Positions 11,707 to 49,972 of a DNA stretch of 64,000 nt are shown piece after piece. The DNA is from Planctomycetota bacterium. Its GTDB lineage: Bacteria; Planctomycetota; UBA1135; UBA2386. The notes below the pieces were generated by a model. The model made no database searches. It saw only the letters and a program-made list of their open reading frames with translations, and was not told the DNA's origin. Each line of letters opens with the position of its first letter. Position 1 is the stretch's first letter. The stretch covers positions 480,001-544,000 of the forward strand of contig OZ245838.1 of NCBI GenBank assembly GCA_965228735.1, in the 5' to 3' direction. Position numbers and translations under genes: made by a program.

Positions 11707-13866
11707 ATGCACTGGTCCATCGGCGTTGTTGCTGCATCTTGGTTCGTCGTTTCCCTTGGTGCTCAGACCTGGAATCGCGCCGATGCCTTCCCGAGTGCAG
11801 GGTCGGGGATCATGACTCACGACCGCGACCGGGATCGCGTAGTGATGTTCGGGCACTACAACGGCGATGACGTCACCTGGGAGTGGACCGGCGCGACGTG
11901 GTCGCCCAATCACACCGCGACGTATCCGTCGGTGACCTTCCGTCACACGTTGGTCTACGACGACGCGCGCCGCCAGACGTGGTTGTTCGACTTCGGTTCG
12001 CGCGAGACTTGGGCCTACGACGGTCGGATGTGGTCCCAGGTGAACACGTCGATGGCGCCGTCGTATCGCGAGGCCCCGAGCATGGTGTTCGACCGTCAGC
12101 GCGACGTCGCAGTTCTGTTCGGCGGCCAGTTCGACCACCACACTGTGTTGAGCGACACTTGGGAATGGGATGGGACCTCGTGGACTCAGGCGCAACCGCC
12201 GGTGATCCCGGGTGCCCGCGCGGGTCACGCGATGACCTACGATCCGGTTGCCGGCGAAGTGTTGATGTTCGGCGGTAGCAACCTCCAAGGCGTGCTCGAC
12301 GACACCTGGGCCTGGGACGGGACGTTCTGGGTGCAGCAGCAGGCCTTCGTCAGGCCAGCCGCGCGTTGGGGGAGCGCGATGGCGTTCGACTCGGTCCGCC
12401 AACGGCCGCTGCTCTTCGGCGGCAGGAGCATCCAGACTTACGACGACACCTGGGAGTGGACCGGTAGCAACTGGCAACAGCTGCAGCCGGCGACGACGCC
12501 GCCGTGGGACTTCGGCGCTGCCCTGGTGGCTCACGACGGCACGAACAGTCTGTTATTGCACGGCGCGGCCGAGGGGCAGACCTGGCGCTGGGATGGCACG
12601 GATTGGTCCTTGGCCCAGGACTGGCCGGCTCCGGCATTGATGGAGTCCGCCGCCGCGGCCGACCGCGCTCGTGGCAAGATCGTGGTGTTCGGCGATGCGC
12701 GCGGCAACAGTACGTTCCCGGCGCCGGTGCCGACCGGCACGTGGGAGTGGGATGGCATCGAGTGGGAGCGCAAGCAGCCGGCGGTCGAGCCGCCCTCGCG
12801 CGGCTATGGCGCGATGGCGTCGGATCCGCTGCTCGGCAAGACGATTCTCTACGGCGGCCAGCAGCGGGTGAACTACCAGTGGCTGTTCGACACCTGGGAG
12901 TGGGACGGCAACCAGTGGACGCAGCGGTTCCCAACGACATCGCCGCAGGTGCGTTTGCGTTCGACGATGTACTTCGATGCCACGATCGGACGCGCTGTCC
13001 TCGCCACCGAGAACGTGGCCGGCCAGCCGACCGGGTTCTACGAGTGGACCTGGGACGGCAACGATTGGCAGCCGCTCACCTCGACGACCGCGCTCGGTCA
13101 GTTCCGCGCGGCCGGCTACGACGAAGCGCGAGGAGTCGCCGTCGCGGTCACCTCGAGCGGAACGTTCGAGCGGGTCGGCGGGCAGTGGCAACAATTGACG
13201 GGGGCGGGTCCGTTCTTCGGCGCGTTCGACGGTCGCGGTTTCGCCTACGATCCGGCGCGGCAGACGATGGTGGCGATCACCTACGCTACCAGCTTGGGTG
13301 CATACTCGGCCCCGGCCTGGGAGTGGGATGGCCTGTCCTGGTCGAGCCTGCCCTCGGCCCAGGGGCACGGCTACTATGCCGCGCGCCTGCTCGTCGAAGA
13401 CCCCACGCGTGGACAGCTCACCCTCATCGGCGGCAACATCCTCGCTACGCGATTCTGGAACCTCACCGATTCTCCGGCGTTCGGCGAGGCGTTCGGCGGC
13501 GCCTGCGGCGGATCTGCCGGTGAGGTCACGGTCACTGCGCGCGGGAAACCGCGCACCGGCAACGCGGCGTTCGGAGTCGACGTCGACCACGCACTCCCCG
13601 GGGCTCTCGTCCTGCTCGGCATCTCGATCGGTGAAGGCAACGCCCCGCTCGGCAACGGTTGCTCGTGGTACTTCGGCAGTCCGATCGCATCGCACGTGTT
13701 GTTCGCCAGTGCCTCCGGGTTCGCGGCGGTCGATCTTCCGATTCCTCAGAGCACGGCGTTTCGGGGCATCGTCCTGGCGTCGCAGGCGTTCGCCATCGAC
13801 CCGGCGGGTCCGCACCTGGGTGGTTTGGCGGCCAGTGCGGGGCTTCGTATTCGGATCGGCGACTGA
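11707..13866 (+). CDS. Secreted kelch-repeat protein
   Basis: Repeats of YD..R...LFGG...DTWEWDG..W; signal peptide; C-terminal FGGACGG...LPIP...Q domain. Confidence 0.85.
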   Translation: MHWSIGVVAASWFVVSLGAQTWNRADAFPSAGSGIMTHDRDRDRVVMFGHYNGDDVTWEWTGATWSPNHTATYPSVTFRHTLVYDDARRQTWLFDFGSRETWAYDGRMWSQVNTSMAPSYREAPSMVFDRQRDVAVLFGGQFDHHTVLSDTWEWDGTSWTQAQPPVIPGARAGHAMTYDPVAGEVLMFGGSNLQGVLDDTWAWDGTFWVQQQAFVRPAARWGSAMAFDSVRQRPLLFGGRSIQTYDDTWEWTGSNWQQLQPATTPPWDFGAALVAHDGTNSLLLHGAAEGQTWRWDGTDWSLAQDWPAPALMESAAAADRARGKIVVFGDARGNSTFPAPVPTGTWEWDGIEWERKQPAVEPPSRGYGAMASDPLLGKTILYGGQQRVNYQWLFDTWEWDGNQWTQRFPTTSPQVRLRSTMYFDATIGRAVLATENVAGQPTGFYEWTWDGNDWQPLTSTTALGQFRAAGYDEARGVAVAVTSSGTFERVGGQWQQLTGAGPFFGAFDGRGFAYDPARQTMVAITYATSLGAYSAPAWEWDGLSWSSLPSAQGHGYYAARLLVEDPTRGQLTLIGGNILATRFWNLTDSPAFGEAFGGACGGSAGEVTVTARGKPRTGNAAFGVDVDHALPGALVLLGISIGEGNAPLGNGCSWYFGSPIASHVLFASASGFAAVDLPIPQSTAFRGIVLASQAFAIDPAGPHLGGLAASAGLRIRIGD

Positions 13867-14012
13867 CCTGGGTTGCCGGAATCTAGCCGTCAGCAAACGG
13901 CCGGCAGTTGTCGGAGCCCGCGGATGTCAACAGTCGTTGCTGGCACTGGCGCGCCACGTCTACCAACTCGATGCGCGGGCGCCGTGCGGTACGTCCCGGG
14001 CCCGGTAGTCGC

Positions 14013-14312
14013 CTAGGACTTTTTCTTCGCGGTCTGCCCGGCCTCTTCAAGGCCGCTCAGAACTGTTTCGACGCTGGTCTTCGCCGGATCGAAGCTGACG
14101 ATGATGTCGGTCTTGCCGGCTTCCACCTTGGCGCCGGTGACGCCGGGCATGTCGGTCAGCAGGCCACGCACGGTGGCCGCACAACCGCCTCAAGATGGCG
14201 CCTTGGCCAGAACGAGTGCGACATCGACACCATTGGAAGCTTGCTGCATCGAGGTACAAGCGCCCAGGGCAAGGAGGAGCGAAGCTGCGCTCGTCAGGGA
14301 GGATCGTTTCAT
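14013..14312 (-). CDS. HMA-domain lipoprotein, putative selenoprotein (UxxC; Sec at codon 41)
   Basis: MKRSSLTSAASLLLALGAC...VLAKAPS-TGA(14190-14192)-GGCAATVRGLLTDMPGVTGAKVEAGKTDIIVSFDPAKTSVETVLSGLEEAGQTAKKKS-TAG. The HMA fold continues in frame, with a hairpin after the TGA. Confidence 0.8.
14162..14178 (-). promoter_or_regulatory. Putative bacterial SECIS hairpin
   Basis: GGCCAC-CGUGC-GUGGCC stem begins 11 nt after the UGA; GU near the 5' side of the loop. Confidence 0.6.
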
Positions 14313-14382
14313 TGTTCTTCGAGTTGGGGTGAGGCTGGAGGAATCTAGCGCGCAGCTGACGAGAGGGAAGGCCCTCGGCGCC

Positions 14383-14634
14383 TCACTTCCGTAGCTTGGC
14401 GAGAAAGCGTTCCTTGTCGTCCTCGAACTCCGCGACGCACGGGCGGCAGCAGAACTTGACTTCCTGGTCGCCGTAGACCTTGACGACCGGATCGCCCATC
14501 GATCCGAGCTTGTTGTCGGTGACGATGCAGACGTCGGAAGGGTAGGGTCGAACATTGGCGTGGATCGCTGCGCAGGAGGCGAACAGCGCGGCGAATGCAG
14601 TAATGGCGAGCGCGCGGATTCGGTTGGTCTTCAT
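14383..14634 (-). CDS. YHS/TRASH-like metal-binding lipoprotein
   Basis: Lipobox FASC; YPSDVCIVTDNKLGSMGDP...YGDQEVKFCCRPC. Confidence 0.8.
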   Translation of the reverse strand: MKTNRIRALAITAFAALFASCAAIHANVRPYPSDVCIVTDNKLGSMGDPVVKVYGDQEVKFCCRPCVAEFEDDKERFLAKLRK

Positions 14635-17536
14635 GTGGCGGATTAGAAGCGGAAGACCATTCCGAGGCCATAGCCGTGGTCCGAGTGGTACGATGTCGAC
14701 AGTCCGAGGCGCTGGCTGAGGGCCCAGCCGGAGCCGATCGACCACTCACCGTACGTATTGGTATCGTATTCGAAGGAGCCGAACAGAGACCAGCGGCTGG
14801 TGAGCTGAAGCTCCTTCTCGAGTGCGAGCCGGAAGTCGCCCCGGGAGTCGACGCTCAGATTCGACATCACGAAGTAGGGCAGTCGGTATCTCACGCCGGC
14901 AAAGGCGCGGCTGGTGGTGCCGGCCGTGTCGGCGTAGCGAAATCCCAGTTCGGTGGCGAGGTCTGGGTCGATGTAGCGAGACCAGCCCAGGTCGACTTCG
15001 ACGTCGCGCTCGCCGTGCTCGTGGCCGCCGAACGCGGTCGACAAGCCGATGTCCCAGCGGGCGAAGTAGTCGTTGCGCCCCTTCATCACCATCAGGCGAC
15101 CGGAGGTCATGTGGTTCTGCACGGTGGCATCGAGCAGCAAGTACGCTGGATCGAGCAGTTTGGGATCGATCTTCGGTTCGTGCTCGGGGTCCTGCGAGTA
15201 GCTGAAGACGCGCGCCATTCCGGCGTCCATGTGGTACAGCAGGTGGCAGTGGAAGAACCAGTCGCCGCCTTCTTCGTCGGCGATCCACTCGATTACGCGT
15301 TTGCCCATCGGCGGCACGTCGACGGTGTGCTTGAGGGGCGCCCTGGCGCCTTGGCCGTTGAGCAGGCGGAAGAAGTGCCCGTGCAGGTGTAGCGGGTGGT
15401 GCATCATGGTGTCGTTGATGAGCTCGATCCGTAGCACTTCCCCTCTTTTGACGCGGATGGTGGTCTCCTCACTCAGCGTCTTGTCGTCGAACGACCAGAG
15501 GTAACGCTGCATGTCGCCAGTGAGGCGCATCGTCAGCAGGCGCACCTCGGCTTCGTCCGCCGTGATGGTCGTATCCCGGGTTGCGCGCAGAAGGCCGTAT
15601 GGCGCGAATGGTTGGTCCGATGTCGCGGCTTCTTGAGCGCGCTTCGGCATCAAGGTGGCGAGCCCGGCCTGCAGCATCTCGTCCATCGAGTAGAGTTCCG
15701 CCCTCGGCGGATCCGTGGCGGCTCGCAATGGACCGTCGCCGAGCAGGATCGACGCGTGGCCGCTGCCGTCCTGGGCGGTCGCACGAACTTCGACCGTTGC
15801 GGCTTCGGCCGGCATCGTGACGATGACGTCGTAGGTCTCCGCCATCCCGACCAGGAGTCGTCGCACGTCGGCTGGCTCGACCCGCTGCCCGTCGGCGCCG
15901 ACGATCGTGAGGTCTCCCCCGGCCGCGGCCAGGAAGAAGTACGTCGACGCACCCGCATTGATAAATCGCATCAATACGCGTTCCCCGGGCGCGGCGTCGA
16001 GTGGCAGCCGGCGCTGGCCGTTGGCGAGGAAGGCGTCGTAGCCGACGTCGGACAGATCCATCGCCGGCATGCGGTCGCCTTCGCGCCGGATGTAGTCGCC
16101 GAGCGCGCCTCGTTGGTAGGCGCCCCACAGTGACTGTTGCACGCCCTTCTTGATCGAGTACCACTCGCTACCGCGCATCAGCCAGCGCATCACGGTGGCA
16201 GGATCCTCGTCCGTCCAGTCGCCGAGCACGACGACGTGTTCGCGATCGAACTCGATGTCCGGCGTGCGCGGCTCGATGACGATTGCACCCTGGACGCCGC
16301 GCTGCTCCTGCAGCCCGGTGTGCGAGTGGTACCAATAGGTTCCCGATTGCCGGAGCGTGAACTCGAACGGGTGCTCGCCGCCCGGCGGGATCGGCGGTGT
16401 GGTCAAGTATGGGACACCGTCCATTTCGTTGGGCAAGAGTAGACCGTGCCAGTGGATGGAGGTTTCCTCGGTTGCGAGCCGGTTCTTGACAGTGATGCGG
16501 GCGGTGTCGCCTTCGCGAAAGCGCAGGACTGGACCTGGCGAAGTGCCGTTCACGACGAGAACGGGGACGACGTTGCCCGCCGGTGCGCCTTCGACCTCGC
16601 TTATCACCAACTCGTATTCGACTGTCTTGCTGCCCGTCGATTGAGCATCGGTCGTCGGGGGAGTGTGCGATGAACGGTGTATTCGCGTGACGGCTGGTGG
16701 GATCCTCTGACCCATAGGGAGCCCACCGATGACCCCGAAGAAGAATGACCGCCACCGAATCCCGGACGAGCTGATCGACCAGCTCCTCGCCAACTACGAG
16801 AAGCCAGAAGACCTGACAGGAAAGGACGGCATCCTCAAGGAGCTGACGGCCCGGCTGCTCGGCCGCGCCCTCGAAGGCGAGATGACCGAGCACCTCGGCT
16901 ACGAGAAGCACGCGCCGCGTGCCGAGGGCACGACCAACGCGCGCAACGGATCACGCAGCAAGACGATCAAGGTCGAGGACGGCGAGCTCGAGATCGAGGT
17001 GCCGCGCGATCGCGACAGCACGTTCGAGCCCGAGATCGTCAAGAAGCGCCAGAGACGCTTCGCGGGCTTCGACGAGAAGATCCTGGCGCTCTACGCCCGC
17101 GGCATGACCGTCCGGGACATCCAGGGCCACCTGGAGGAGCTGTACGGCGTCGAGGTTTCGCCGTCGCTGATCTCGAGCGCCACGTCGGCGGTCCACGAAG
17201 ACGTCCTGGCCTGGCAGAGCCGGCCGCTCGAGCCAGTTTACCCGATCGTCTTCCTCGACGCGCTCGTCGTGAAGGTGCGCGATGAAAGCGTCGTCCGCAA
17301 CAAGTCGGTCGACCTGGCGATCGGCGTCACGCTCGACGGCCGTCGCGAAGTCCTCGGGATCTGGATCGAGCAGACGGAGGGCGCCAAGTTCTGGCTGAAG
17401 GTCATGAACGAGCTGAAGACGCGCGGCGTCCAGGACATCCTGATTGCGTGCTGCGATGGCCTGAAGGGCTTCCCAGACGCGATCGAGCACGTGTTCCCGC
17501 AGGCCACCGTGCAGACCTGCATCGTGCACATGATCC

Positions 17537-18961
17537 GGCAAAGCAACATTCGTTCTGTAAGAGCGAGCCCATAGTCGGCGAATCATTTCACTCAGCGTCC
17601 ATGGAGAGATAGCGACGGCCAGTCACCCAGTCCTCGCTGATCTCCATGAGGACCGCGGTGGCGAGCCGGAGAAGAGAGGCGTCGTTGGGGAAGAGCGTCG
17701 CAACGCGGGTGCGGCGCAGGAGCTCCTTGTTGAGGCGCTCGAGCATGTTGGTCGTGCGAAGGCAGCGACGGTGCGTCGCCGGGATCGCGAAGACAGCGAA
17801 GCCGTCGGGGACGTTGTCGCGAGCCCACCGGACAAAGTCGGGAGCGGTTTCCGCGTGATCCTCCAGAAGCCTATCAAGAAGCCGTTCGGCCTCAGGTCGG
17901 TCTGGAGCGTTGAAGACCGCACGAAGTCCACGAGCGATCGACGGGCGCAACGAGACGGTCGGCACTCGTGGAGCGGCGTTGCGTTGCAGGTGGAACTGGC
18001 AGCGTTGCCAAGCGACTCCGGGAAAGCTCGCCGCCAAAGCTTGGCGGAGGCCAGAGTGGTCGTCACTGACGATGAGTCCGAGCCCGTGCAGGCCACGTTC
18101 ACGCAGGCTGTCGAGGAAGTCGCGCCAGTGGACCTCGGCTTCCGAGCGCGACACGCTGACGCCGAGGACCGAGCGATGGCCTGCATCATCGACGCCCGTC
18201 GCGATCAGGACGGCGGCGCTCATGACGGAGCCGGCGTGCCGGACCTTTTCGTAGCGGGCATCGAGGACCAGGTAGCGGCACCGGCCGAGCTCGCGCATCC
18301 GCCACTGCTGCAGCTCGTCGTCGAGTGCCGCGGCGGCCCGGGAGACCTGCTGGGACGACACCTGTACTCCGCAGAGCTCCTCGGTGATCGCGGCGACCTT
18401 GCGGGTCGAGACGCCCTGGACGTACATCTCGGCGACCGCGAGCTTCAGGGCGCGCTCCGAGCGAATCCCGCGTTCGAGTGCCGTCGGATAGAAGCGTTCG
18501 CCGTCGACGGCCTCGCGGACCTGCGGGACGGCGAACTCGATCGCGCCGACGCGAGTCGCCACGGTCTTCGGCTTGAAGCCGTTGGCGTAGCCCCGTCGTG
18601 ACTCGGTACGCTCGTTTGGACCGGCGCCCAGGAACGCGGATCGCTCGATCTTCATGGCCTCGTTCACGAGGACGCGGATCGCGTCCGCGATCCCTCCCAG
18701 ACCCTGCGTTGCGATGGATTCCAAGACGGTGTCGAGCGTGCTACTTTCGGATTGGTGGGTCACTTCGTTCTGCTTTCGTTGTGGTTAACAAAAGCTGAGC
18801 GTCGTGACTCGCCGACTTGAAGCATCCGTCCGCGCCGGCGGTGGTCGTCGCGGTCGGCCTGGCCACTGCACCCAGGGTGCAGCGCCCAGACCGACCGCGA
18901 CGACCACCGCCGACTGCGTCAAGCTGCCTCGGGCGGTTTACAGAACGCATGCTGCACTACC
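17537..18961 (-). mobile_element. IS256-family element (inner, nested)
   Basis: IRs GGCAAAGCAACATTCGTTCTGTAA / GGTAGTGCAGCATGCGTTCTGTAA. Target duplication CATGATCC at 17529-17536 and 18962-18969. Confidence 0.92.
17588..18763 (-). CDS. IS256-family transposase (intact)
   Basis: EMYVQGVSTRKV, LDARYEKVR, SDDHSGL, WQRCQFH, RTTNMLERLNKE. Confidence 0.95.
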   Translation of the reverse strand: MTHQSESSTLDTVLESIATQGLGGIADAIRVLVNEAMKIERSAFLGAGPNERTESRRGYANGFKPKTVATRVGAIEFAVPQVREAVDGERFYPTALERGIRSERALKLAVAEMYVQGVSTRKVAAITEELCGVQVSSQQVSRAAAALDDELQQWRMRELGRCRYLVLDARYEKVRHAGSVMSAAVLIATGVDDAGHRSVLGVSVSRSEAEVHWRDFLDSLRERGLHGLGLIVSDDHSGLRQALAASFPGVAWQRCQFHLQRNAAPRVPTVSLRPSIARGLRAVFNAPDRPEAERLLDRLLEDHAETAPDFVRWARDNVPDGFAVFAIPATHRRCLRTTNMLERLNKELLRRTRVATLFPNDASLLRLATAVLMEISEDWVTGRRYLSMDAE

Positions 18962-19810
18962 CATGATCCGGAACTCGCTGCGCTTCGTCAGCTACAAGGA
19001 TCGCAAGGCCGTCGCCAAGGACCTCAAACCGATCTACACGGCCGCCAACCGTGAGGCCGCCGAGGCAGCGCTCGACGCCTTCGACAAGAAGTGGGGCCGC
19101 CGCTACGAGATGATCACCTCGTCCTGGCGAGCGAACTGGGAGCGCGTCGTGCCGTTCCTCGACTTCCCGCCCGAGGTCCGGCGCGTGATCTACACGACCA
19201 ACCAGATCGAGGCGCTCAACTCGAGCCTGCGCAAGCTGCTGCAGTACCGCGGCCACTTCCCGGACGACAAGTCCGTCACCAAGCTGCTCTACCTCGCGCT
19301 GCGTCGCTTCGAGAAGAAGTGGACGCGTGCGCTCTGGAATTGGAGCGCCGTCCTCGGGCAGCTCGCTATCTTCTTTCAAGGCAGGATTCCTGCCCTGTAA
19401 CCGTGACCTCACTCCGCCAGCTGGTCGCCGATTACACCGTTAGCTGCACACTCCCGTCGTCGGGGCCAACAAGAGAAGCGACAGGATCGCCAGCAGACTT
19501 CGAAGTGCAACGTTGCCCATGTGGTTGTGTGTGCGCCGTCATGGATCGTGGCGGCGCGCGGAGATTCTGCGCCGCGATCGCACCCGCGTCCAGACAACAC
19601 GCCCCGGGACGGTCGCTCGCCTTCCTTCGGTGGCCGGGTCGCATCGGCCGTGACCTACATCCGGCGCCATGACATCGTCGCCATCGAGAGCCGATCCGGA
19701 ACGCCTCCTCGTTCCGAAGGATCGGACTCGCCACGCAGGATGTCTCGGACCCGGCTATGATCGTTGTCGGGAGGGCCCTGCCATCCCCCCGCTCCTGATC
19801 GAGGCCCGAC

Positions 19811-20227
19811 ATGAAAACCGCAGCTCTCGTCTCCGTCCTCTTCGCCGCAACCGCGCCGGCGCAACACTGGTCGCTGCACCATCACGGCCACTCGTGCGGC
19901 GCCGCAGTCTCGGCGCAGCTCGTGCAGCATGCGCATCAGGTCAGCGTGCAGTTCAACTTGCACACGACTCCGAACTCCCTGGCTGTGCTCGCGATCGGCC
20001 ACGCCGCGCCGGCGCCGATTCCGCTGCCGGGCGGGTCGTGCCACTTCGGCGTCTCGCCCGCCGGCACGATGCTCGGCATCACGGATTCGCACGGCAACAT
20101 CCACTTCGGCTTCCATGCCCCGCACGTCGCGCCGGTGAGCGTGCTGTTCCAGGGCGGTGTCGTTCGGCTCGGACCACACGGCCTGACTGCGGGATCGAGC
20201 AACGTCATCGAACTCGTCGGCACGTGA
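19811..20227 (+). CDS. Secreted histidine-rich protein
   Basis: Signal peptide ending APA|Q; 15 His in 138 aa; GAGG upstream. Confidence 0.7.
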   Translation: MKTAALVSVLFAATAPAQHWSLHHHGHSCGAAVSAQLVQHAHQVSVQFNLHTTPNSLAVLAIGHAAPAPIPLPGGSCHFGVSPAGTMLGITDSHGNIHFGFHAPHVAPVSVLFQGGVVRLGPHGLTAGSSNVIELVGT

Positions 20228-21111
20228 TCCCCGGCGCCGGGCGGCGCTGGCCGCTTCTGTTACTTGTCGTTGCCTTGATCGTGTCCGCCGGCTCGGCACA
20301 GATCTTCACGGCTGACGCCGGGGTTCGGTCGCCGGAGCTGCCGTCGGTGAGGGAACTCGTCGTCATGCGCGGCTATCGGGATGCCACGGAACTGCGTGCC
20401 GTCTCCGAACTGACCTGGAGCCCGAGCACGCGGTTCGAGACCAAGCTCGAAGTACCCTTCGTCGGGCGTGACCTCGAGATCCCGGCCGCGTCCGGCGCCG
20501 GCTTCGACGGCAGCTACTTCGCCCTCGGGGACACCGTCCTGCGCGGCAAGCTGGCGTTGCTTCGCGATGACGACGTGATGCGTTCCAACCGGGTCGCACT
20601 GCTGGCGGCGGTCTACGCGCCGACCGGCGAACACGATCGAACCCTGGGCGGAGTGCGGCTCCCGCGCCGGGTGCAGGCGGGACTTGGCGGGGTTGCGGGG
20701 AGCCTGGGCGTGGCCGGCACGATCGTCCGCGATCGGCACCGCGCTTCGCTGTCGGCCGAGTGGTTGCACGGCGCCGCCCACGACGGGTTCGAACCCGGGG
20801 ATGAACTCGCGGTCGACGCGGCGTGGTGGTATCGACTGTCACCCGGCGTGTTCGACCCGGCCTTGCCAGCTACCGAGTATCGCCTCGTCACCGAACTGCG
20901 CAGCGTGCACCGATTCGCGGACCACGAGGGCGGAGTGCGGGCCCCTGACGATGGGCTGCGCAGTGAGATGGTTCTCGGGCTGCAGGCCAACACGTCGAAT
21001 CAGCGTTTGCGTTTCGAGATCGGTGCCGTCGTTCCTGTCTTCGAAGACACCCCGGGCCCCCTCGGCCGGTTCCGTGCTGGTGGGGTTGTGGCGCTCACAC
21101 TCTACTTCTGA
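20224..21111 (+). CDS. Putative outer-membrane beta-barrel transporter (MetA/SphA-like)
   Basis: GTGA overlap with the upstream gene; signal peptide; LGDTVLRGK, APTG, VQAGLG; C-terminal LTLYF. Confidence 0.65.
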   Translation: MIPGAGRRWPLLLLVVALIVSAGSAQIFTADAGVRSPELPSVRELVVMRGYRDATELRAVSELTWSPSTRFETKLEVPFVGRDLEIPAASGAGFDGSYFALGDTVLRGKLALLRDDDVMRSNRVALLAAVYAPTGEHDRTLGGVRLPRRVQAGLGGVAGSLGVAGTIVRDRHRASLSAEWLHGAAHDGFEPGDELAVDAAWWYRLSPGVFDPALPATEYRLVTELRSVHRFADHEGGVRAPDDGLRSEMVLGLQANTSNQRLRFEIGAVVPVFEDTPGPLGRFRAGGVVALTLYF

Positions 21112-21119
21112 CCACGACC

Positions 21120-21602
21120 ATGAATCTCACTCGGACTCCCCTGTTAGTGCTCACTCTCGTTGGCTGCGCGGCGCCGCCACCGCGACCGGGCACACCGCTT
21201 TCGAGCGACTCCGGTCTTCGCGAGGTCCGCATCGAGGCCCTCGGGCTCGAGTGACTGCCTTGAGTGAAAGCCGTCGAGGACGGCCTCCGGCGCCTGGACG
21301 GCGTCGAACGCATCAAGACCGACCTGCAGCGCAACCTCGTGACGATGACACCGGCGCGTCGTGTCGCGCCGGACCTGGCGTCGATCCCGCGCGTGATCGC
21401 GGAGGCCGGGTTTCGGCCTGGGCGCATGTGGATCACGGCGCACGGCGCGACCGAGGAGTTGGCCGCGGGCCAGCCGGGATTCCGCATCGATGGCTGGCCG
21501 GCAGGGCTGCCGCTCTCTGGTTCGACCGCCCGGGGGCGTCGCAAGATCGAGGGGCAGGTTGTCTACAGCGACGACGAGATACGGCTGCGGTTGCCTGAGT
21601 AG
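21120..21602 (+). CDS. HMA-domain lipoprotein, putative di-selenoprotein (UxxU; Sec at codons 45 and 48)
   Basis: MNLTRTPLLVLTLVGC...EVRIEALGLE-TGA-LP-TGA-VKAVEDGLRRLDGVERIKTDLQRNLVTMTP...IAEAGF. Both TGAs (21252, 21261) occupy the Cys positions of GxxCxxC. Confidence 0.8.
21270..21298 (+). promoter_or_regulatory. Putative SECIS-like hairpins
   Basis: GCCGUC-GAG-GACGGC (21270-21284) and UCCGG-CGC-CUGGA (21286-21298) directly after the UGA pair. Confidence 0.45.
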
Positions 21603-22007
21603 GTGCGAAGCAGCGGCTTGTCGATTGCTGCGCTCCACCGACCATCTCGATCCACTTGATGCCCCGCGCCGACGCCGTCGCACCGCCCGTGGAGATGCCC
21701 AGGTCGGGCCGACTGCGGCGAGGCCTGACCTGGAATACTCTTTGCTACTCGTTCTTCCATCGTAACCAAGCTTCGGACAACCCAGCGTCGGCACCGCGGC
21801 GAGGGCGATGGTCCGAACATTGGGTGGTCAGATTCTGGCGCCGGGACTCGACAGGTCCTGACGGCAGTTGAATCTGACTGCGTCGTTTCCGGGTATCAGA
21901 TGACAGAGCAGCGTGCACACGACCATGAAACACGGTTCGAATCGTTGAGTGTCGCGTATCACGATCCTCGGGCGTCCGCGGACACCCGCAGCTTGAAAGT
22001 CCCCTAG

Positions 22008-22406
22008 ATGTTGCCATCCCGCGTGTTCCTGATCTCGTTGTGTTGGGCGGCGGTCCTCTGGATCGGCGTCGCGGCGCAGCGCGGCGATGCGCAGCGCCTG
22101 GATAGCGCATGCGGCTCGATGAATGCCACGCCGTCTTCTTCGTGCTGCGGAGAGGAACGTGGCTGCTGCGAGATGGAGGGTGATTCGCAGCGGCTGTGTG
22201 GATGTGGCGAGTCGGACCCGGCGCCGCATCCGGCGATTCCGACTCCGAGTGGTCCGCAGGTCGCGCAGATTGCGCCAGATTGGACTTGGCCGCCGGTCGT
22301 CGTGCCGCCACGAGCAAGCGGTTCCGCGCCACTGGGAAGCGATCTGCCCATGGGGCTTCTGCCACGCGTCTCGCGGCAGAAGGCGCTCTCGGTCTGGCAC
22401 TGCTAG
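22008..22406 (+). CDS. Cys-rich hypothetical membrane/secreted protein upstream of efflux operon
   Basis: N-terminal hydrophobic helix, CC..CC..CGC cluster, Pro-rich tail ending SVWHC. Confidence 0.55.
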   Translation: MLPSRVFLISLCWAAVLWIGVAAQRGDAQRLDSACGSMNATPSSSCCGEERGCCEMEGDSQRLCGCGESDPAPHPAIPTPSGPQVAQIAPDWTWPPVVVPPRASGSAPLGSDLPMGLLPRVSRQKALSVWHC

Positions 22407-22451
22407 CAAGCCGAGTAGGGGCGGTCTGTACGGACCGAACCTACCGAGTTC

Positions 22452-23957
22452 GTGAGTGCGGCCTTCCAGGTCGCCTCGTCGCCCTTGGCCATTCCCGCCC
22501 GAGATCGATTCATGGGATTCGACCGCAACACCTACACCGTGAGCTGCCGGTTCGGCGCGCTCCTGGCACTGGCAGCCTTGACTGCCTGCTCTTCCTTCTA
22601 CTCCCTGTCGGACGAGGTGCAGCAGCGCATCGCCGAGGAGAGCGGCACGCTCGAGCTGAAGATCAGCGATCACGACGGCGTCCAGGATGCCGCTGCGAAG
22701 GCCATCCGCCGCGAGCTCCCGCTTCCCGAGGCCATCGAGATCAAACCGGACGCCAAGCTGCACGACTATGTGGCGCTGGCGCTTTCGCGCAACCCGCGGC
22801 TGCAGGCGCGGATTCGCGAAGTCGAGGCTCTGGGAATGCGCGTGCCGCAGGTGTCGTCCTTGAGCGACCCGACACTGTCACTGGTGCCGCCGACGGGCGA
22901 CATGGTGCAGACTGCCGGCGGCGAGATGGCGGGAGCGGTTGGCCTGAGCCAGGGCATCCCGTGGCCGGGCAAGCTCGAGGCCAAGGGGCGTGTGGCCGAG
23001 CAAGTGGTGCGGGTCGCGCTGTCCAATCTCGACACCGAACGCCTTCGAGTCGTGGCCGACGTCAAACGGGCGTACTTCGATCTCTACCGCGCGCAGGTAT
23101 CGATCGACGTGACCCGCGAGTTGGAAGCGCTACTGCAGCGCGTCCGCGATAGTGCGCAGGCGCGCGTTGCCGCGGGCACCACCAGCCAGCAGGACCTGTT
23201 GCGCACCGAGGTCGAGCTCTACGCGTTGACGAACTCGCGCATCGACTATGAGCAGGAGTTCCGTACCGCGATCGCTCGGCTCAACATCCTCATGGATCGA
23301 GCCGTCGACGCGGATCTGCCCCGGCCCGCACCGGTGGCTGCCGAGCCACTGCAGTGGCGGTTGCTCGGTCTGTTGCAGCGCGCCGACGAGACCAGCCCCC
23401 AGCTCGCGGCGTTGCGCCAGGTCGTCGAGCGCGACCTCGTTCGCGTGGAGCTCGCGAACCTGCAGTTCTACCCTGACCTCAGTATCGGCGGGTTGTTCAC
23501 GTTCATCATGAACGGCGGCCGCAGCCCGGTTGCGGACGGCAGCGACGTCTGGAGCCTCGGCCTCGGCGTCACGTTGCCGATCTGGTTCGACAAACTGGAG
23601 AGCGGCGTGCTGCAGCGCAACGCCGAGACGCTCGCCAGCGTGCTGCGCTACCGCGAGCGCCGCAACGATGTGTTGTTCGTGCTGCAGGAGCTGCTCGTGC
23701 GGGTGGACGCCGATTACCGCAAGGCAGTGTTGCTGCGTGACGGCATCCTGCCCCGGGCCGACCAGGCCGTGCGGGTCGCACAGAGTGGCTACGACGCCGG
23801 CACCGTCGACTTCGCGACACTGCTCGCGGGTTGGCGCCGGCTGTTCGAGCTCAGCCTCGACTACCACCGGGCGCTCGCGTCGCTCGAGCAGAACATCAGT
23901 GAAGTGGAATACGTCGCCGGTGGCGACATGCAGCGGCAGCAGCCGCCGGAGAAATGA
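22452..23957 (+). CDS. TolC/CusC-family outer membrane efflux lipoprotein
   Basis: Lipobox LTAC, ALSRNPRL, SQGIPWPGKL, coiled coils. True start may be downstream. Confidence 0.9.
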   Translation: MSAAFQVASSPLAIPARDRFMGFDRNTYTVSCRFGALLALAALTACSSFYSLSDEVQQRIAEESGTLELKISDHDGVQDAAAKAIRRELPLPEAIEIKPDAKLHDYVALALSRNPRLQARIREVEALGMRVPQVSSLSDPTLSLVPPTGDMVQTAGGEMAGAVGLSQGIPWPGKLEAKGRVAEQVVRVALSNLDTERLRVVADVKRAYFDLYRAQVSIDVTRELEALLQRVRDSAQARVAAGTTSQQDLLRTEVELYALTNSRIDYEQEFRTAIARLNILMDRAVDADLPRPAPVAAEPLQWRLLGLLQRADETSPQLAALRQVVERDLVRVELANLQFYPDLSIGGLFTFIMNGGRSPVADGSDVWSLGLGVTLPIWFDKLESGVLQRNAETLASVLRYRERRNDVLFVLQELLVRVDADYRKAVLLRDGILPRADQAVRVAQSGYDAGTVDFATLLAGWRRLFELSLDYHRALASLEQNISEVEYVAGGDMQRQQPPEK

Positions 23958-26299
23958 TCATGAAACCTGCCCCTGATTCGCCCACTACCGATCCGACTCC
24001 GGGTGCGCCGGAGCCCTCGCGGCGCCCGCCGAAAGCCTGGCGGACGTTCTTGCTGATCATGTTGCTGCTCGTGGTGGGCGGCACCATGTTGGCCGTCGGC
24101 CGTTCGTTCGGTGATCGCATCTACGCGACGCTCGGTCAGATCTGGCAGGACATCGCCGGCGCGCCGCCGGACGACGAAGGTGACGACTCCGGCAATACGT
24201 TCTTCACCTGCGGGATGCACCCGTGGGTCATCCTGCCAGCACCTGGGCTGTGTCCGATCTGCCACATGGACCTGACGCCGCTCGATGCGTCGAAGTTCAC
24301 CGGTGAGATCGCGATCGACCCCGTGCTCGCGCAGAACATCGGCGTGCGCACCGCGGTCGTCGATACGGGGCCGCTCGTCGCCACGGTTCGAACCGTGGGC
24401 AAGGTCGACTACGACGAGACCGGCCTGCACGACGTCAACCTGCGCGTAGCGGGCTGGATCGAAGAGCTGCACGTCGACTACCTCGGCACCGCCGTGACGA
24501 ACGAGCAGCCGCTGTTCGAGCTGTATTCGCCGGATCTGTACTCGGCGCAGCAGGACTACCTCCTCAGATACGAGCAGAAGGACTTGCCAGGGGTCTCGTT
24601 CGTGCCGCGGGTCGCCGAGGACGCTGCGAGCGCACTGCAGGCGGCGCGGACGCGGCTCACCTTCTACGGCATCGATGACAAACAGATCGCGGAGCTCGAG
24701 CGCGCAGGCGTACCGAGTAGGACCATGACGATCCGGAGTCCACAGCAGGGCACGGTGATCGAGAAGATGGCCGTGGACGGCATGCGGGTCGAGCCGGGGA
24801 TGCGGATGTATCGCATCGCCGATCTCGACAGGGTGTGGGTGACGGTGACGGTCTACGAGTACCAGCTGCCGTTCGTCGAGCTCGGACAGGAGGCGAGGAT
24901 GGTGCTGCCGTACGTCCCGGGGCAGGAGTTCACCGGTGAGGTCACCTACATCTACCCGTGGACCGACGAGAAGACCCGTCAGGTCAACGTGCGGCTGGAG
25001 TTCGACAACAACGACGGGCGACTCAAGCCAGGCATGTTCGCGAACATCGAGCTGCGGCGCACACTGGCCGCAGAGCGCACGCTCGTCAGTCGCTCGGCGG
25101 TCATCGACACCGGCGAGCGGCAGGTCGTACTCATGAGCCTCGGCGGTGGCCGCTTCGAGCCGCGCGAGCTGAAGCTCGGGATCGAGACCGAGGGCGGCTT
25201 GGTCGAGGTGCTGGAAGGTCTCGAGCCGGGCGAGCGGGTCGTCACCAGCGGGCAGTTCCTGCTCGACAGCGAGGCGAAGATCCGTGAGGGCCTGCTGCGC
25301 ATGTTGCGGGGGGACCTCGTCGGCAACGAATCGGCCGGCGACGGACCGGAGCTCGAGTCGCAGCCGCAGGCCCTTGCGGTCGCGTTGACCCGCGCGCTCG
25401 AGAGCTACGTCGTGATCGGCGACGAGCTGGCCAGCGACTCGGCTGCGGACATCGCCAAGTCGGCCGCGGACCTCGCGGCTGCGGTGGAGGAGGTCACCGG
25501 GGTATCGATCCCCGGCGATGAGCACTTCTGGCACAAGCACACCGAGGTCGCCGCGATTCGCGACAAGGCCACCGAGCTGCGAACGATGACGGATCTCGCT
25601 GCGGCGAGACTCGTGTTCTTCGATCTCAGCTCGGCCTTCGTCAAGTTGCTGCGTGCCACGGGGGTGCCACCGACCTACGAGCACGAGGTGCAGGAGCTGC
25701 ATTGCCCGATGTACCAGGAGGAGCGCGGGGGCGCGACCTGGGTTCAGCACGGTGGAAGCGTGCGCAATCCCTACTACGGCAGCGAGATGCTGGTCTGCTA
25801 CGACTCGCGGGAGACGTTGCCCGTGGCTGCGGAAGCCGGCGACACCGGCCCTGCGGCTGCAGCTGCTGCGGTGGACGAAGCGGCGATCGATGCGATCGTG
25901 ACGGTTTACCTCCGGGCTTCGGCAACGCTGGTAGAGGACCGCACCGATGGGCTCGATGCCGCATGGCACGAGTTGCACGAGCTGACCGCGCGCCTGTTCG
26001 ATGCTCCGGGTGCTGTCGCCGACCTCGCGCGCAAGGTGCGTGACGCCGTGCCGGGCACGGGGCTGAGTATCGAAGCGGCTCGCAAGGAGTTCGAAGGTCT
26101 CTCGGCTGCAGTGATCGAGCTCGTGCGCGTCGCGCCTGCGGGGCGTCCGCTCGAGCGTGCGTTCTGTCCGATGGTCGACGCGTCCTGGCTGCAGGCCGAG
26201 AAGTCGGTGAAGAACCCCTACATGGGGCAGGACATGCTCGAGTGCGGCAGCGTCAAGGAGACGCTGCCGGGCCGTCAAAACGGAGGGCAGGGCCGATGA
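23954..26299 (+). CDS. cusB: CusB-like RND membrane fusion protein with N-terminal heavy-metal-binding domain and two DUF3347-like C-terminal domains
   Basis: FTCGMHP...CPICHMDL; LYSPDL; LKPGMFA; GQFLLDSE; two CPM...W...NPY.G..ML.C modules. Confidence 0.88.
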   Translation: MIMKPAPDSPTTDPTPGAPEPSRRPPKAWRTFLLIMLLLVVGGTMLAVGRSFGDRIYATLGQIWQDIAGAPPDDEGDDSGNTFFTCGMHPWVILPAPGLCPICHMDLTPLDASKFTGEIAIDPVLAQNIGVRTAVVDTGPLVATVRTVGKVDYDETGLHDVNLRVAGWIEELHVDYLGTAVTNEQPLFELYSPDLYSAQQDYLLRYEQKDLPGVSFVPRVAEDAASALQAARTRLTFYGIDDKQIAELERAGVPSRTMTIRSPQQGTVIEKMAVDGMRVEPGMRMYRIADLDRVWVTVTVYEYQLPFVELGQEARMVLPYVPGQEFTGEVTYIYPWTDEKTRQVNVRLEFDNNDGRLKPGMFANIELRRTLAAERTLVSRSAVIDTGERQVVLMSLGGGRFEPRELKLGIETEGGLVEVLEGLEPGERVVTSGQFLLDSEAKIREGLLRMLRGDLVGNESAGDGPELESQPQALAVALTRALESYVVIGDELASDSAADIAKSAADLAAAVEEVTGVSIPGDEHFWHKHTEVAAIRDKATELRTMTDLAAARLVFFDLSSAFVKLLRATGVPPTYEHEVQELHCPMYQEERGGATWVQHGGSVRNPYYGSEMLVCYDSRETLPVAAEAGDTGPAAAAAAVDEAAIDAIVTVYLRASATLVEDRTDGLDAAWHELHELTARLFDAPGAVADLARKVRDAVPGTGLSIEAARKEFEGLSAAVIELVRVAPAGRPLERAFCPMVDASWLQAEKSVKNPYMGQDMLECGSVKETLPGRQNGGQGR

Positions 26300-29200
26300 T
26301 TGGCAAGGTCATCGATCTGTGCATTCGCAACCGGGTGATGGTCCTGCTGCTCACGGCGTTCGTCGTGTTCGGCGGCATCTACGCGATCCAGAACATCAAG
26401 GTCGACGCGATTCCCGACCTGTCGGACGTGCAGGTCGTGATCCGCACCGAGTACCCGGGCCAGGCTCCGCAGATCGTCGAAGACCAGGTCACGTATCCGC
26501 TGACGACGACGATGCTCGCGGTTCCGTACGCGAAGGTCGTGCGCGGCTACTCGATGTTCGGGTCGAGCTTCGTCTACGTGATCTTCGAGGACGGCACGGA
26601 TCTGTACTGGGCGCGCAGCCGCGTGCTCGAGCAGCTGAGTTTCGTGGCCGGCAAGCTGCCTTCAGGTGTGAGCCCGCAGCTCGGTCCGGATGCGACGGGT
26701 GTCGGCTGGGTCTATCAGTACTCCCTCGTGACGGGACCCTACAGTCCCGACCACCCGGGCGGGGCATACCACGATGAAGAGAACGACCGTTGGTATGCCG
26801 CTACTGACCTGCCGGAGCTGGCGGCCGACGTTCGGGACCGGCTCGTGCACCATCGCATCTTCGCGCGGCCCAAGACGGTCTACTACGACCGCACCGAGAA
26901 TCGCCGCTATGACGACATCGAGCGGGCGCCGGCCCGGGCGAAGAAGCGACTCGAACCGATCGAACTGGTGCGCGGCTTCACCGAGTGTCCGCTGAGCGGC
27001 GAGCCGCTGCGCGAGCCGGACGTCGATCTCGCCCAGCTCAGGTCCCTGCAGGATTGGTATCTGCGCTACGAACTCACCGCTCTCGAGGGGGTCAGCGAGA
27101 TCGCGGTGATGGGCGGGTTCGTCAAGCAGTACCAGGTTGTCGTCGACCCCGTGAAGCTGCTTGCGCTCGAGATGCCACTGTCGCGCGTCAAGCAGGCCGT
27201 GCGGCGCTCGAACGTCGACGTCGGCGGTCGGCTCATCGAGATGGCCGAGACCGAGTTCATGGTGCGCGGCATCGGCTATCTCGGATCGGTAAGCGACGCC
27301 GAGATCGAGACCGCGCGCGCGGCGGGCCGTTCGGTGGAGAAGCTGCGGACCGAGCGCGCGCTCGAGGAGCTGCGGAAGATCGCGCTCGGCGCGAATGCCC
27401 AAGGTGCCCCGATCTACCTGCGCGATGTCGCGGAAGTTCGGCTGGGGCCCGACATCCGGCGTGGGGTCGCCGACTGGAATGGCGAGGGCGAGACTGTCGG
27501 CGGGGTCGTCGTCATGCGATTCGGCGAGAACGCAAGCAAGACGATCGAGCGAGTGCGCGAGCGGCTGCAGGAGCTCGAGTCCGGCTTGCCGCCCGGTGTG
27601 GCGATTCGAACGGCCTACGACCGCAGCGACCTGATCGAACGGTCCGTGCACACTCTGACCGGCACGCTCATCGAGGAGATCCTCGTCGTCTCGTTGATCT
27701 GTATCTTGTTTCTGCTGCACGCGCGGAGCGCTCTGGTTGCCATGTTCGTGCTGCCGACGGGCGTGCTCGCGAGCCTGGCGGTGATGTATCTGCTCGACCT
27801 CAACGCCAATATCATGAGCTTGGGCGGTATCGCGATCGCGATCGGCGTCATGGTCGACAGCTCGATCATCATGGTCGAGAACGCCCACAAGCACTTCGAG
27901 CGCGACAAGCATCGCGTAGCCGCCGGCGGCACGCCGACTCCGCGCGCTGAGTTGATCGGCGAGGCGGCACGAGAAGTCGGCCCGAGCCTGTTCTTCAGCC
28001 TGCTGATCATCACCGTCAGCTTCCTGCCGGTGTTTGCACTGGGTGAGCAATCCGGGCGCTTGTTCAAGCCGCTCGCTTACACCAAGACGTTCGCGATGGC
28101 GGCCGCCGCCATCCTCGCGGTGACGATCATCCCGGTGCTAATGGTCTACTTCATCAGCGAGCGGGTCCTGCCCAAGGCCATGCCGCGCTGGCAGCGATGG
28201 GCGATCTACCTCGCATTCATGGGGCTGCCGGCCGCAGTCTTGGCCGTCGCCCCACTGGCGACGCTCGAGGCCTGGCGGCTCTGGCTCGTGATCGGATGGT
28301 TGGTCGTCGGGGGCCTCATCGTGCTGCCGCAGCGGATCCTGTCCGAAGAGCACAACCCCATCAGTCGGCTGCTCCAACGGATCTACGATCCGGCGTTCAC
28401 GTTCGTGATGCAGTTCCGCTGGAGCGTCCTGACGCTCGCCGTTGCGGTCGTGGCGTTGACGGCGTGGCCGCTCAGCAAGCTCGGCTCGGAGTTCATGCCG
28501 CCGCTCGAGGAGGGTGACCTGCTCTACATGCCGACCACCGACCCGGGGATCAGCGTCAACAAGGCGCGCGAACTGCTGCAACAGACCGACGCGCTGATCA
28601 TGGCGTTGCCGGAGGTGCAGAGCGTGCTGGGCAAGATCGGGCGCGCGGAGACGGCCACCGACCCGGCGCCGCCGAGCATGCTCGAGACGACGATCACGTT
28701 GCATCGCGACAAGAGCCTGTGGCGCACGAAGCCCGTGCTTCGCTTCTTCTCGGACTGGCCCGAGTGGGTCCGCGACCCGCTCCACGAGATCTGGCCACCC
28801 ACGGAGCCGATCACGGTCGACGAACTGGTCTACGGCTACGACTGGCCCGATGGCACGCACGTGCCGGGCCTCAACGAAGTCGTGCAGGTGCCCGGCTTGA
28901 CGAATGCCTGGACGATGCCGATCAAGACCCGCATCGACATGCTGTCGACCGGCATCAAGACGCCGGTCGGCATCAAGGTCATGGGGCCGGATCTCTCGAC
29001 ACTGGCGGACGTCTCGGAGCGGATCGCCGCCGCCGTGACGACCGCGAAGACGACCGGACCGTTCACGACGAGCGCGTTCCCCGAGAAGTCGGTAGGCGGT
29101 AGCTATCTCGATGTCCGCATCAATCGCGACGAGATCGCTCGCCACGGGCTGCTGATCGCCGACGTGCAGGACGTGATCATGAGCGCGATGGGGGGCATGA

Positions 29201-30120
29201 ACGTGACCTCGACGGTCGAGGGGCTCGAGCGCTACCCGGTCAATGTGCGTTACCCCCATGAGCTGCGCGACAACCTGCCCGCACTGCGGCAATCGCTGGT
29301 TGCGACTCCTGCCGGCGCGCAGGTGCCGCTCGGGCAGCTGGCGGAGTTCGAGGTCCACAAGGGCCCACCGATGGTCAAGAGCGAGAACGCTCGCCTGACC
29401 AGCTGGGTCTACGTCGATATCGCGGGTATCGACGTCGGGACCTACGTGCGCAACGCGCAGGCGGTGGTAGCCAAACAAGTCGAGCTGCCGCAGGGCTACT
29501 CGGTCGTGTGGTCGGGGCAGTTCGAGTACATGCAGGAAGCGAACAAGCGCTTGAGCATCGTGATTCCGATCGCGGCGGTGCTGATCGTGCTCTTGCTCTA
29601 CATGGCGACGCGATCCTGGCTGCGTGTCGGCATCGTGCTGCTGGCCGTTCCGTTCAGCCTGGTCGGAGCGATCTGGCTGCTCTGGTTCCTCGACTACAAC
29701 ATGTCGCTGGCGGTGTGGGTCGGGATCATCGCGCTCGCTGGACTCGACGCCGAGACCGGGCTCGTGATGCTGCTCTATCTCGACAATAGCTTCGAGCGGT
29801 TCAAGGCATCCGGTCGGATGCGGAACGCCGACGATCTGTGGTTCGCGATCCACGACGGTGCCGTGAAGCGCATCCGACCGAAGACCATGACCGTGATGAC
29901 GACGTTCATCGGCCTGGCCCCGTTGCTCTTCGCATCGGGCGCCGGTGCCGACACGATGCGGCGCCTTGCCGCTCCGATGATCGGCGGGCTGGCGACGAGT
30001 TTCATCATGGAGCTCCTGATCTATCCGGTGCTGTTCTTCCAGGCCAAGCGCCTGGCGATGCGCGGGACCTGGCGTGCCGCGGCGGGCGCCGCGCCAATGC
30101 CGACGAGGTCTTCTTCGTGA
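26296..30120 (+). CDS. cusA: CusA/SilA-family heavy metal efflux RND permease
   Basis: DAIPDLSDVQV, GPDATGVGWVYQY, GSEFMPPLEEGD, KTRIDMLSTG, GAVKRIRPKTMT. Confidence 0.93.
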   Translation: MIGKVIDLCIRNRVMVLLLTAFVVFGGIYAIQNIKVDAIPDLSDVQVVIRTEYPGQAPQIVEDQVTYPLTTTMLAVPYAKVVRGYSMFGSSFVYVIFEDGTDLYWARSRVLEQLSFVAGKLPSGVSPQLGPDATGVGWVYQYSLVTGPYSPDHPGGAYHDEENDRWYAATDLPELAADVRDRLVHHRIFARPKTVYYDRTENRRYDDIERAPARAKKRLEPIELVRGFTECPLSGEPLREPDVDLAQLRSLQDWYLRYELTALEGVSEIAVMGGFVKQYQVVVDPVKLLALEMPLSRVKQAVRRSNVDVGGRLIEMAETEFMVRGIGYLGSVSDAEIETARAAGRSVEKLRTERALEELRKIALGANAQGAPIYLRDVAEVRLGPDIRRGVADWNGEGETVGGVVVMRFGENASKTIERVRERLQELESGLPPGVAIRTAYDRSDLIERSVHTLTGTLIEEILVVSLICILFLLHARSALVAMFVLPTGVLASLAVMYLLDLNANIMSLGGIAIAIGVMVDSSIIMVENAHKHFERDKHRVAAGGTPTPRAELIGEAAREVGPSLFFSLLIITVSFLPVFALGEQSGRLFKPLAYTKTFAMAAAAILAVTIIPVLMVYFISERVLPKAMPRWQRWAIYLAFMGLPAAVLAVAPLATLEAWRLWLVIGWLVVGGLIVLPQRILSEEHNPISRLLQRIYDPAFTFVMQFRWSVLTLAVAVVALTAWPLSKLGSEFMPPLEEGDLLYMPTTDPGISVNKARELLQQTDALIMALPEVQSVLGKIGRAETATDPAPPSMLETTITLHRDKSLWRTKPVLRFFSDWPEWVRDPLHEIWPPTEPITVDELVYGYDWPDGTHVPGLNEVVQVPGLTNAWTMPIKTRIDMLSTGIKTPVGIKVMGPDLSTLADVSERIAAAVTTAKTTGPFTTSAFPEKSVGGSYLDVRINRDEIARHGLLIADVQDVIMSAMGGMNVTSTVEGLERYPVNVRYPHELRDNLPALRQSLVATPAGAQVPLGQLAEFEVHKGPPMVKSENARLTSWVYVDIAGIDVGTYVRNAQAVVAKQVELPQGYSVVWSGQFEYMQEANKRLSIVIPIAAVLIVLLLYMATRSWLRVGIVLLAVPFSLVGAIWLLWFLDYNMSLAVWVGIIALAGLDAETGLVMLLYLDNSFERFKASGRMRNADDLWFAIHDGAVKRIRPKTMTVMTTFIGLAPLLFASGAGADTMRRLAAPMIGGLATSFIMELLIYPVLFFQAKRLAMRGTWRAAAGAAPMPTRSSS

Positions 30121-30275
30121 TCAAAGCCGCACTGGCACCAACCTCTATGGTCCGCCGGGACGAAACGACAGATCTACCAAGGGCGTGTGTCCGGCCGCAG
30201 ACTCGTGGATTCCACCGGCTAGTAAAGCGCCCACGTCCCATATGTTGCTGCCCGCTCACACTCCCGACACTGCCC

Positions 30276-33171: not shown

Positions 33172-33301
33172 GATAGCCCAACGATGCCGTCAGAGTCGAG
33201 GTGATGTCGATGACCGGCGGCGATTCAGTTCTTGGCATCCGTGTCGTGGGCGGCGCAGTGTTGCTCGCTACGGAGGCTTCAACCAGTTGAGAGTGCTGCA
33301 G

Positions 33302-49879: not shown

Positions 49880-49972
49880 TGAACGAGCTGTTCCGTCCTA
49901 CGTCCCAGACGTCGCGAGACTTCGTTCTTCGGCCCGGCCACGTTTCGCGAAGCGAGAGTGGAGAATCACACC

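Follow-up and report, generated by a model that had tools for sequence, protein, structure and literature searches.

The window analysed here, a stretch of 64,000 nucleotides (nt) from a planctomycetal genome (contig OZ245838.1, positions 480,001 to 544,000 of the forward strand, assembly GCA_965228735.1), contains between its positions 14013 and 21602 two divergent operons, each of which ends, as an initial annotation of this DNA had stated, in a gene for a lipoprotein of the heavy-metal-associated (HMA) type; judged from sequence, both are very likely selenoproteins. That annotation had taken the two operons for a single selenium-dependent metal-handling system of the cell envelope. Comparison with related loci reveals that the conserved unit is a two-gene module, composed of an outer-membrane β-barrel of the PF13557/COG4313 type and an HMA lipoprotein, which are coupled across the Planctomycetota. 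The finding is narrower than the proposed divergent system, and the module of barrel and double-selenocysteine HMA lipoprotein, with its tandem hairpins in the messenger RNA, is wider, extending across the phylum.

Both genes of the module lie on the forward strand of the window. The barrel gene (20224–21111), whose start overlaps the stop of the upstream gene (GTGA), encodes 295 residues with a signal peptide and a C-terminal Phe. The lipoprotein gene (21120–21602) encodes 160 residues with lipobox Cys16 and holds two in-frame TGA codons (21252 and 21261, motif at 21252–21263) at the positions of a CxxC motif, giving E-U-L-P-U with selenocysteine (Sec, U) at residues 45 and 48. In a neighbourhood survey of Planctomycetota, a check named in the initial annotation, the pair recurs: the barrel lies directly upstream at 10 of the 13 related UxxU loci. 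A metagenome scan with the barrel alignment yielded 15 loci, namely 12 true barrels, three of which repeat other loci, and 3 weak non-barrel matches; a lipoprotein follows every true barrel (11 UxxU, 1 UxxC). Among more distant barrels, for which 35 loci were examined from 59 lower-scoring profile matches, 28 have an adjacent HMA-like or YHS partner: a Sec-bearing HMA-like lipoprotein comes next at 21 (4 UxxU, 1 CxxU, 15 UxU and 1 with four TGAs), a CxxC HMA protein at 3 and a YHS lipoprotein at 4, with 6 loci lacking such a partner and 1 cut off. In two genomes where selA and selB were not found at 99% and 98% completeness (G001 and G238), a CxxC HMA lipoprotein is encoded upstream of the barrel. 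Because the pairing survives both the switch between Sec and Cys and the reversal of gene order, barrel and lipoprotein appear to be functionally coupled. Two variants of the pair were also seen: a barrel-linked lipoprotein with four TGAs in six codons (G-U-V-U-U-E-U; L143:2800–3000, genome G168), and a separate barrel clade (L116, L139, L144 and L146) with YHS lipoproteins next to the barrel, once beside a cbiO-like gene.

Assignment of the barrel to PF13557 is based on a Pfam score of 23.3 bits against a cut-off of 22 (two of seven subfamily barrels lie above it) and on the ESM Atlas, which gives a feature score of 0.98 and a TM of 0.84 to PF13557 clusters. The AlphaFold2 (AF2) model is all-β, with a pLDDT of 84.9; a sequence search of the PDB with the barrel profile gave no match. 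Among 301 genomes of the phylum, 57 contain a match to this profile, and the Atlas clusters also point to Acidobacteriota and Pseudomonadota. In a tree of 46 barrels the grouping follows the type of partner, and the sister of the window's clade (support 100/99) consists of the two barrels from G001 and G238.

In the lipoprotein, Cys16, U45 and U48 are invariant in all 14 aligned UxxU proteins. The AF2 model, computed with Cys for Sec, predicts an HMA fold followed by a five-stranded C-terminal β domain (pLDDT 91.5), and Foldseek relates it to the metal-binding domains of CCS, MerP and CopZ; neither Foldseek nor further search found a named relative of the C-terminal domain. Against the Pfam HMA family PF00403 (cut-off 24.8) the protein scores 22.7 bits, just below the cut-off, with a fold that matches HMA structures, and the lipoprotein of the left operon scores 32.4 bits. 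Neither protein reaches a NCBIfam cut-off. The two score 18.7 and 34 bits against NF041115 (cut-off 95) and 35.9 and 17.6 bits against the MerP entry TIGR02052 (cut-off 92.55), and no merT/merA operon accompanies them. Membership of NF041115, MerP or CopZ was rejected on these sub-cut-off scores.

The source genome contains selA adjacent to a Sec-type selD, a tRNA-Sec scoring 76.6 bits and selB above its cut-off, and insertion of Sec at the TGAs appears close to certain. In both HMA genes the in-frame TGA is conserved and aligns with Cys in homologues. The right protein has matches in 37 of the 301 genomes, the best 12 of 39 matches each carrying two TGAs and the remaining 27 being weak generic HMA proteins; for the left protein the best 8 of 13 matches each carry one TGA, all within the family of the window's host. 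Twenty-two distinct genes have TGAs at both of these Cys positions, and natural exchanges were found, with UxxC in L087, CxxU in L102 and CxxC in L105. Co-occurrence with the Sec machinery, a further check from the initial annotation, was observed in that all 11 other UxxU genomes are selA-positive, compared with 221 of 301 overall, a figure weakened by kinship among the UxxU genomes, which are not independent. The gene content described in that annotation, the nested insertion sequence (IS) and the three TGA-at-Cys codons are all present, and sequencing error was rejected as the origin of the TGAs, on which four independent run assemblies agree. In public gene calls only fragments downstream of the UGAs are annotated, and a search of representative proteins was swamped by multi-HMA proteins and otherwise returned mostly such fragments.

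A scan of the source genome for coding potential and selenocysteine insertion sequence (SECIS) elements gave 66 selenoprotein candidates, about 25–30 of them credible by eye, including further Sec-HMA genes and many exported thiol oxidoreductases. Since so many candidates are credible, selenium dependence is a trait of the lineage, and Cys versions of the module are known. The two TGA-containing HMA genes within 8 kb are both real, and the mutual support once drawn from them is weaker because the genome holds several other Sec-HMA genes (G000:C1:583336–583576 [L148], 2123–2372 [L151], 3694905 [L150] and 604249). One of these, inside a cus/czc cluster, encodes a secreted protein with tandem HMA domains and two UxxC motifs. 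At L048:8500–9600 (G279), where a UxxU gene stands without a barrel, the next genes are a Prx-like one with UxxC and an AhpD-like one containing an in-frame TGA.

Analysis of the RNA downstream of the two UGAs reveals two adjacent hairpins. Hairpin 1 (21268–21286, forward strand), with an 8-bp stem and a variable loop that follows the first UGA at 21 nt, may be the SECIS of that UGA or a spacer; in hairpin 2 (21289–21305, forward strand) the stem is SECIS-like and the N-G-G/U loop lies 31 nt past the second UGA. In 14 aligned genes 94.9% of the cells are paired and both partners have changed in 7 of 14 pairs, a level that none of 500 shuffles reaches and that compares with 32–49% in slid controls, the structure having been derived from the same 14 sequences, which favours it. 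Changes on both sides affect 5 of 8 pairs in hairpin 1, 98.8% of cells are paired in hairpin 2, and pairing survives amino-acid swaps (A-V-x-D-G versus G-V-x-D-A). Both hairpins, at the −7.5 kcal/mol threshold, occur in 36 of 39 double-UGA genes (a set from which four further genes missed by the lipobox filter were left out), in none of 7 single-Sec left-type genes and not in the one Cys gene. Hairpin 2 with an N-G-G/U loop is present in all 39, and a single hairpin in all 7 left-type genes. The CGTGC SECIS loop of the left-type family persists at L065:1612–1674 despite a four-base shift and an altered peptide. The loop of hairpin 1 lies 21–22 nt past the first UGA and is a canonical G-G/U in all 13 UxU genes.

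In the accessible text of PMC13188914, the bacterial SECIS model places one hairpin per UGA at a distance of 16–37 nt; hairpin 2 and the left hairpin conform, whereas here the UGAs lie 1–2 codons apart and are followed by two adjacent hairpins. The left gene and the second UGA of the right gene pass this model for loop, stem, spacing and energy, as do 130 of 2000 random TGAs. We consider the tandem hairpins a likely decoding solution for adjacent UGAs, either with one SECIS per UGA or with hairpin 1 as a spacer that keeps hairpin 2, at least 40 nt beyond the first UGA, in reach until the ribosome melts hairpin 1. SelB would read the first UGA through hairpin 1, or through hairpin 2 stacked on it; the ribosome would next unwind hairpin 1, and hairpin 2 would then serve the second UGA. 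Set against this reading, the first UGA fails the single-SECIS model, hairpin 1, although suitably distant, has the G-G/U loop in only 9 of 22 genes of the window subfamily and in none of 4 of the second UxxU family, and its median p from codon resampling in the window subfamily is 0.10 (0.04 for hairpin 2).

The neighbourhoods of the module suggest its substrate. In G296 a CxxC version shares its operon with merT-P, merA (559 bits against a cut-off of 454) and genes for a MerR-type regulator and a MerP-like protein, and in G092 a MerR gene and a merT-P fusion precede the barrel and a UxxU HMA gene. In G104, G113, G033 and G119 and at L086 the module's neighbours include regulators of the MerR or ArsR type, P1B ATPases or Cus/Czc pumps. 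Judged by eye, the MerR proteins of both L044 and L086 appear to be without the third Hg-binding Cys, which CueR also lacks. In the source genome neither merA above cut-off nor merT was found, and mercury reduction was rejected there; since cus and cop genes also adjoin the module, its substrate in this organism is more probably copper or silver. The soft-metal role put forward in the initial annotation stands as the best reading, with metal binding predicted from sequence and models. The same neighbourhoods hold further variants: the complete mer-like operon of G296 (L152:5495–10742) also encodes a DF-family (seleno)protein besides the barrel and CxxC HMA; three UxxU HMA genes stand in tandem behind MerR and barrel genes in G104 (L044:8700–10480), one fused to thioredoxin and the third likewise showing the two-hairpin layout; and in G033 (L046:11780–12292) a second PF13557 barrel of the same cluster precedes a UxU lipoprotein, behind which come a TehB-like methyltransferase and a P1B ATPase.

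On balance we favour, as one joint reading, that the two-gene module conveys soft metal over the outer membrane and captures it at the periplasmic face, and that the left operon is an independent mobile copper cassette, broken by IS256, which landed in the same metal-resistance island. A soft-metal species would enter through the barrel, and the lipoprotein, docked beneath the barrel, would use its two selenolates to bind Cu(I), Ag(I) or Hg(II) between them and pass the metal to the host's own inner system, MerT/MerA in mer operons and P1B ATPases or Cus/Czc pumps elsewhere. Several observations pull the other way. A UxxU pair in the periplasm would be prone to diselenide oxidation, and one full-length homologue (P0083) has neither Cys nor Sec at the motif, both ligands being lost. 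Three UxxU genes (L048–L050) have no adjacent barrel, and two clade-A barrels (L132 and L133) have no partner. Of 47 loci, 12 have a metal-resistance neighbour within 5 kb, compared with 1 among 60 random windows, a tally inflated by queries drawn from the same loci; 35 of the 47 have none, the window's own subfamily has one at only 6 of 21 loci, and the mer-operon barrels L105 and L107 belong to the other half of the tree, outside the window's clade. Finally, the cargo of those COG4313 channels that have been characterised is hydrophobic organics rather than ions, according to the available part of PMC4493636.

With about three quarters of loci lying among unrelated genes, the module might instead serve housekeeping uptake of a nutrient (trace Cu, Co/Ni or selenium species) and merely be collected by metal islands, an explanation we consider unlikely while giving it the most weight among the alternatives. 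The YHS-partnered barrel beside a cbiO-like gene in G235, the conservation of orthologous positions inside genera and the selenium required to translate the lipoprotein would fit it. However, the regulators and partners, where found, are MerR, ArsR, merT/merA, P1B ATPases and resistance-nodulation-division (RND) pumps, and Cys versions in genomes without Sec argue against a selenium cargo.

It is less probable still that the UxxU lipoprotein works in the periplasm as a redox or diselenide device, with an organic substrate admitted by the barrel, rather than as a metal chaperone. Thioredoxin-like genes or fusions adjoin several loci, Sec occurs in many exported thiol oxidoreductases of the source genome, the spacing of the UxU motifs in related families is too narrow for ordinary HMA geometry, and the accessible text of PMC4493636 describes COG4313 channels as carriers of hydrophobic molecules. 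Against this stand the match of the fold to the metal-binding domains of MerP, CopZ and CCS, the substitution of YHS metal-binding proteins for the HMA partner in one barrel clade, and the mer and cus contexts. Neutral mercury or metal–ligand complexes would be compatible with the description of a hydrophobic channel.

The left operon, on the reverse strand, consists of a multicopper oxidase–CopB-like barrel fusion (14643–19520), a YHS/TRASH-like lipoprotein of 83 residues (14383–14634, weak PF24273 match) and the UxxC HMA lipoprotein of 99 residues (14013–14312; TGA 14190–14192, U41 in S-U-G-G-C), with a single SECIS-like hairpin at 14162–14178. The fusion gene, whose ATG lies at 19520 (not 19521), would encode 690 residues with the IS removed, including all four copper motifs, and matches Pfam Cu-oxidase domains and, weakly, CopB. 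A point absent from the initial annotation is that this gene is interrupted as it stands: just after the signal peptide lies an outer IS256 (16659–19455, forward strand; 42-nt inverted ends, 8-bp target duplication, three genome copies at 98%), within whose transposase an inner IS256 is inserted (17537–18961, reverse strand; seven genome copies at 100%). The inner element holds a 38-bp near-perfect palindrome (18836–18912). Contigs of four runs from three studies show no difference over 13800–16687 and 19401–22200, and among these assemblies no contig crosses the outer IS or restores the empty site. The oxidase–YHS cassette has three copies in the source genome; the intact oxidase paralogues (C1:597–599 kb and 4228–4230 kb) are 76–77% identical to the window copy, and YHS-like paralogues sit behind both. 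An oxidase–YHS–P1B–UxxC HMA cassette has identical matches in two genera (L069 in G157 and L070, G000:C1:590000–609999), which suggests recent transfer between them.

That both divergent operons, the Cus pump and copAB form one selenium-dependent system relaying metal from barrel to oxidase to pump, as the initial annotation had it, is on this evidence very improbable. All the genes are of the envelope metal-handling type and share a divergent spacer of about 290 bp (19521–19810), and the left-type HMA gene follows YHS genes of copper cassettes both in the source genome and in G157. Yet neither the oxidase, nor the His-rich protein of the right operon, nor the left-type HMA gene is found near any of the 13 related UxxU loci, and none of 40 relatives holds the whole divergent arrangement at the DNA level, G305 keeping only barrel and HMA genes and G302 and G157 the oxidase–YHS cassette. 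Moreover, all four runs show the oxidase gene interrupted, and no shared regulator gene was found near the spacer. A scan of 13800–22500, the spacer included, gave no sigma-70-like promoter site.

The first gene of the right operon (19811–20227, forward strand) encodes a secreted protein of 138 residues, 15 of them His, without a family match. It was rejected as a core part of the module, being absent from the 13 related loci, and the mature part of the only paralogue (C1:864666) is free of His; we regard the protein as a local addition. It weakly resembles the C-terminal domain of many secreted proteins of the source genome (E 0.02–0.1). Downstream of the UxxU gene, the Cus-like pump and copAB of the initial annotation are confirmed as a Cys-rich leader, cusC, cusB, cusA, copA and copB (22008–33000, forward strand). 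CusB (23954–26299) is unusually long, 781 residues, with a heavy-metal-binding motif and DUF3347 domains. The metal island extends further, with a double YHS-like protein (33287–34060), a third multicopper oxidase (49958–51718) and a Cu-type P1B ATPase (53913–56558). That genes in an island hit by transposons are liable to decay, and that public gene callers give post-UGA fragments only, would suit true stop codons in pseudogenes or split genes, but this is scarcely credible in view of the TGAs at the same two positions in 22 genes, the Cys exchanges, the covarying hairpins and the strict co-occurrence with selA.

Sec-HMA proteins are a known class, the sources seen in part cataloguing NF041115 UxxU proteins, a UxxC P1B ATPase and Sec-MerT (PMC13188914, PMC9312934, PMC2398784, PMC1976440, bioRxiv 10.1101/2022.07.06.499078); what is new is the tandem covarying hairpins in double-UGA genes. 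NF041115 (UxxU_metal_bind, listed as 'putative mercuric reductase' with 2 Sec in Table 1 of the accessible PMC13188914 text) likewise has an HMA-like fold and UxxU, whereas the window protein adds a lipobox, the C-terminal β domain and the barrel partner and scores below its cut-off; true NF041115-like genes are separate, adjoining or fused with a UxxU lipoprotein in G104 and G026. With MerP, which is periplasmic, and with CopZ and Atx1 (PF00403), the lipoprotein has in common the fold and the position of the ligand loop; it differs by Sec for Cys, a lipid anchor, the extra β domain and a barrel partner instead of MerT. The COG4313 channels Pput2725, TcpY and SphA, described in the available part of PMC4493636 as 12-stranded, with the N-terminus as a plug, and as likely carriers of hydrophobic molecules, share about 270 mature residues, an all-β barrel and an N-terminal segment before the first strand, whereas the window-type barrels are tied to metal-binding lipoproteins and carry conserved charged motifs. 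In relation to the mer operon, the Cys module lies inside a complete one (G296) and the Sec module beside merR and merT-P (G092); no outer-membrane component of a mer operon was found in the literature searched. The SAO system (bioRxiv 10.1101/2022.07.06.499078), as far as its accessible text goes, likewise has exported, lipid-anchored selenoproteins proposed to contact heavy metal in transport; it is a nine-gene ABC system, mostly of monoderm anaerobes (Haft and Gwadz), with no protein family in common with the module. The accessible portions of PMC12013277 and PMC13326102 mention neither HMA nor barrel partners, and no description of barrel and Sec-HMA pairs or of tandem bacterial SECIS hairpins was found in a literature whose subscription papers mostly lay outside coverage.

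Taken in its broadest form, a proposal we advance tentatively, the barrel and double-Sec HMA lipoprotein may constitute an undescribed step of soft-metal entry and capture at the outer membrane, plugged into mer, cop and czc operons across the Planctomycetota, together with bacterial decoding of two UGAs, one or two codons apart, by a tandem SECIS cassette that has reshaped the encoded helix. If so, COG4313 channels would acquire a metal-related job and mercury or copper handling an outer-membrane step, and several selenoprotein families that databases split in two would be added. The insertion of two selenocysteines a few bases apart in one bacterial mRNA would become directly testable, with the natural UxxU, UxU, UxxC, CxxU and CxxC variants as ready-made controls, and the tandem-hairpin cassette could guide the expression of multi-Sec proteins.

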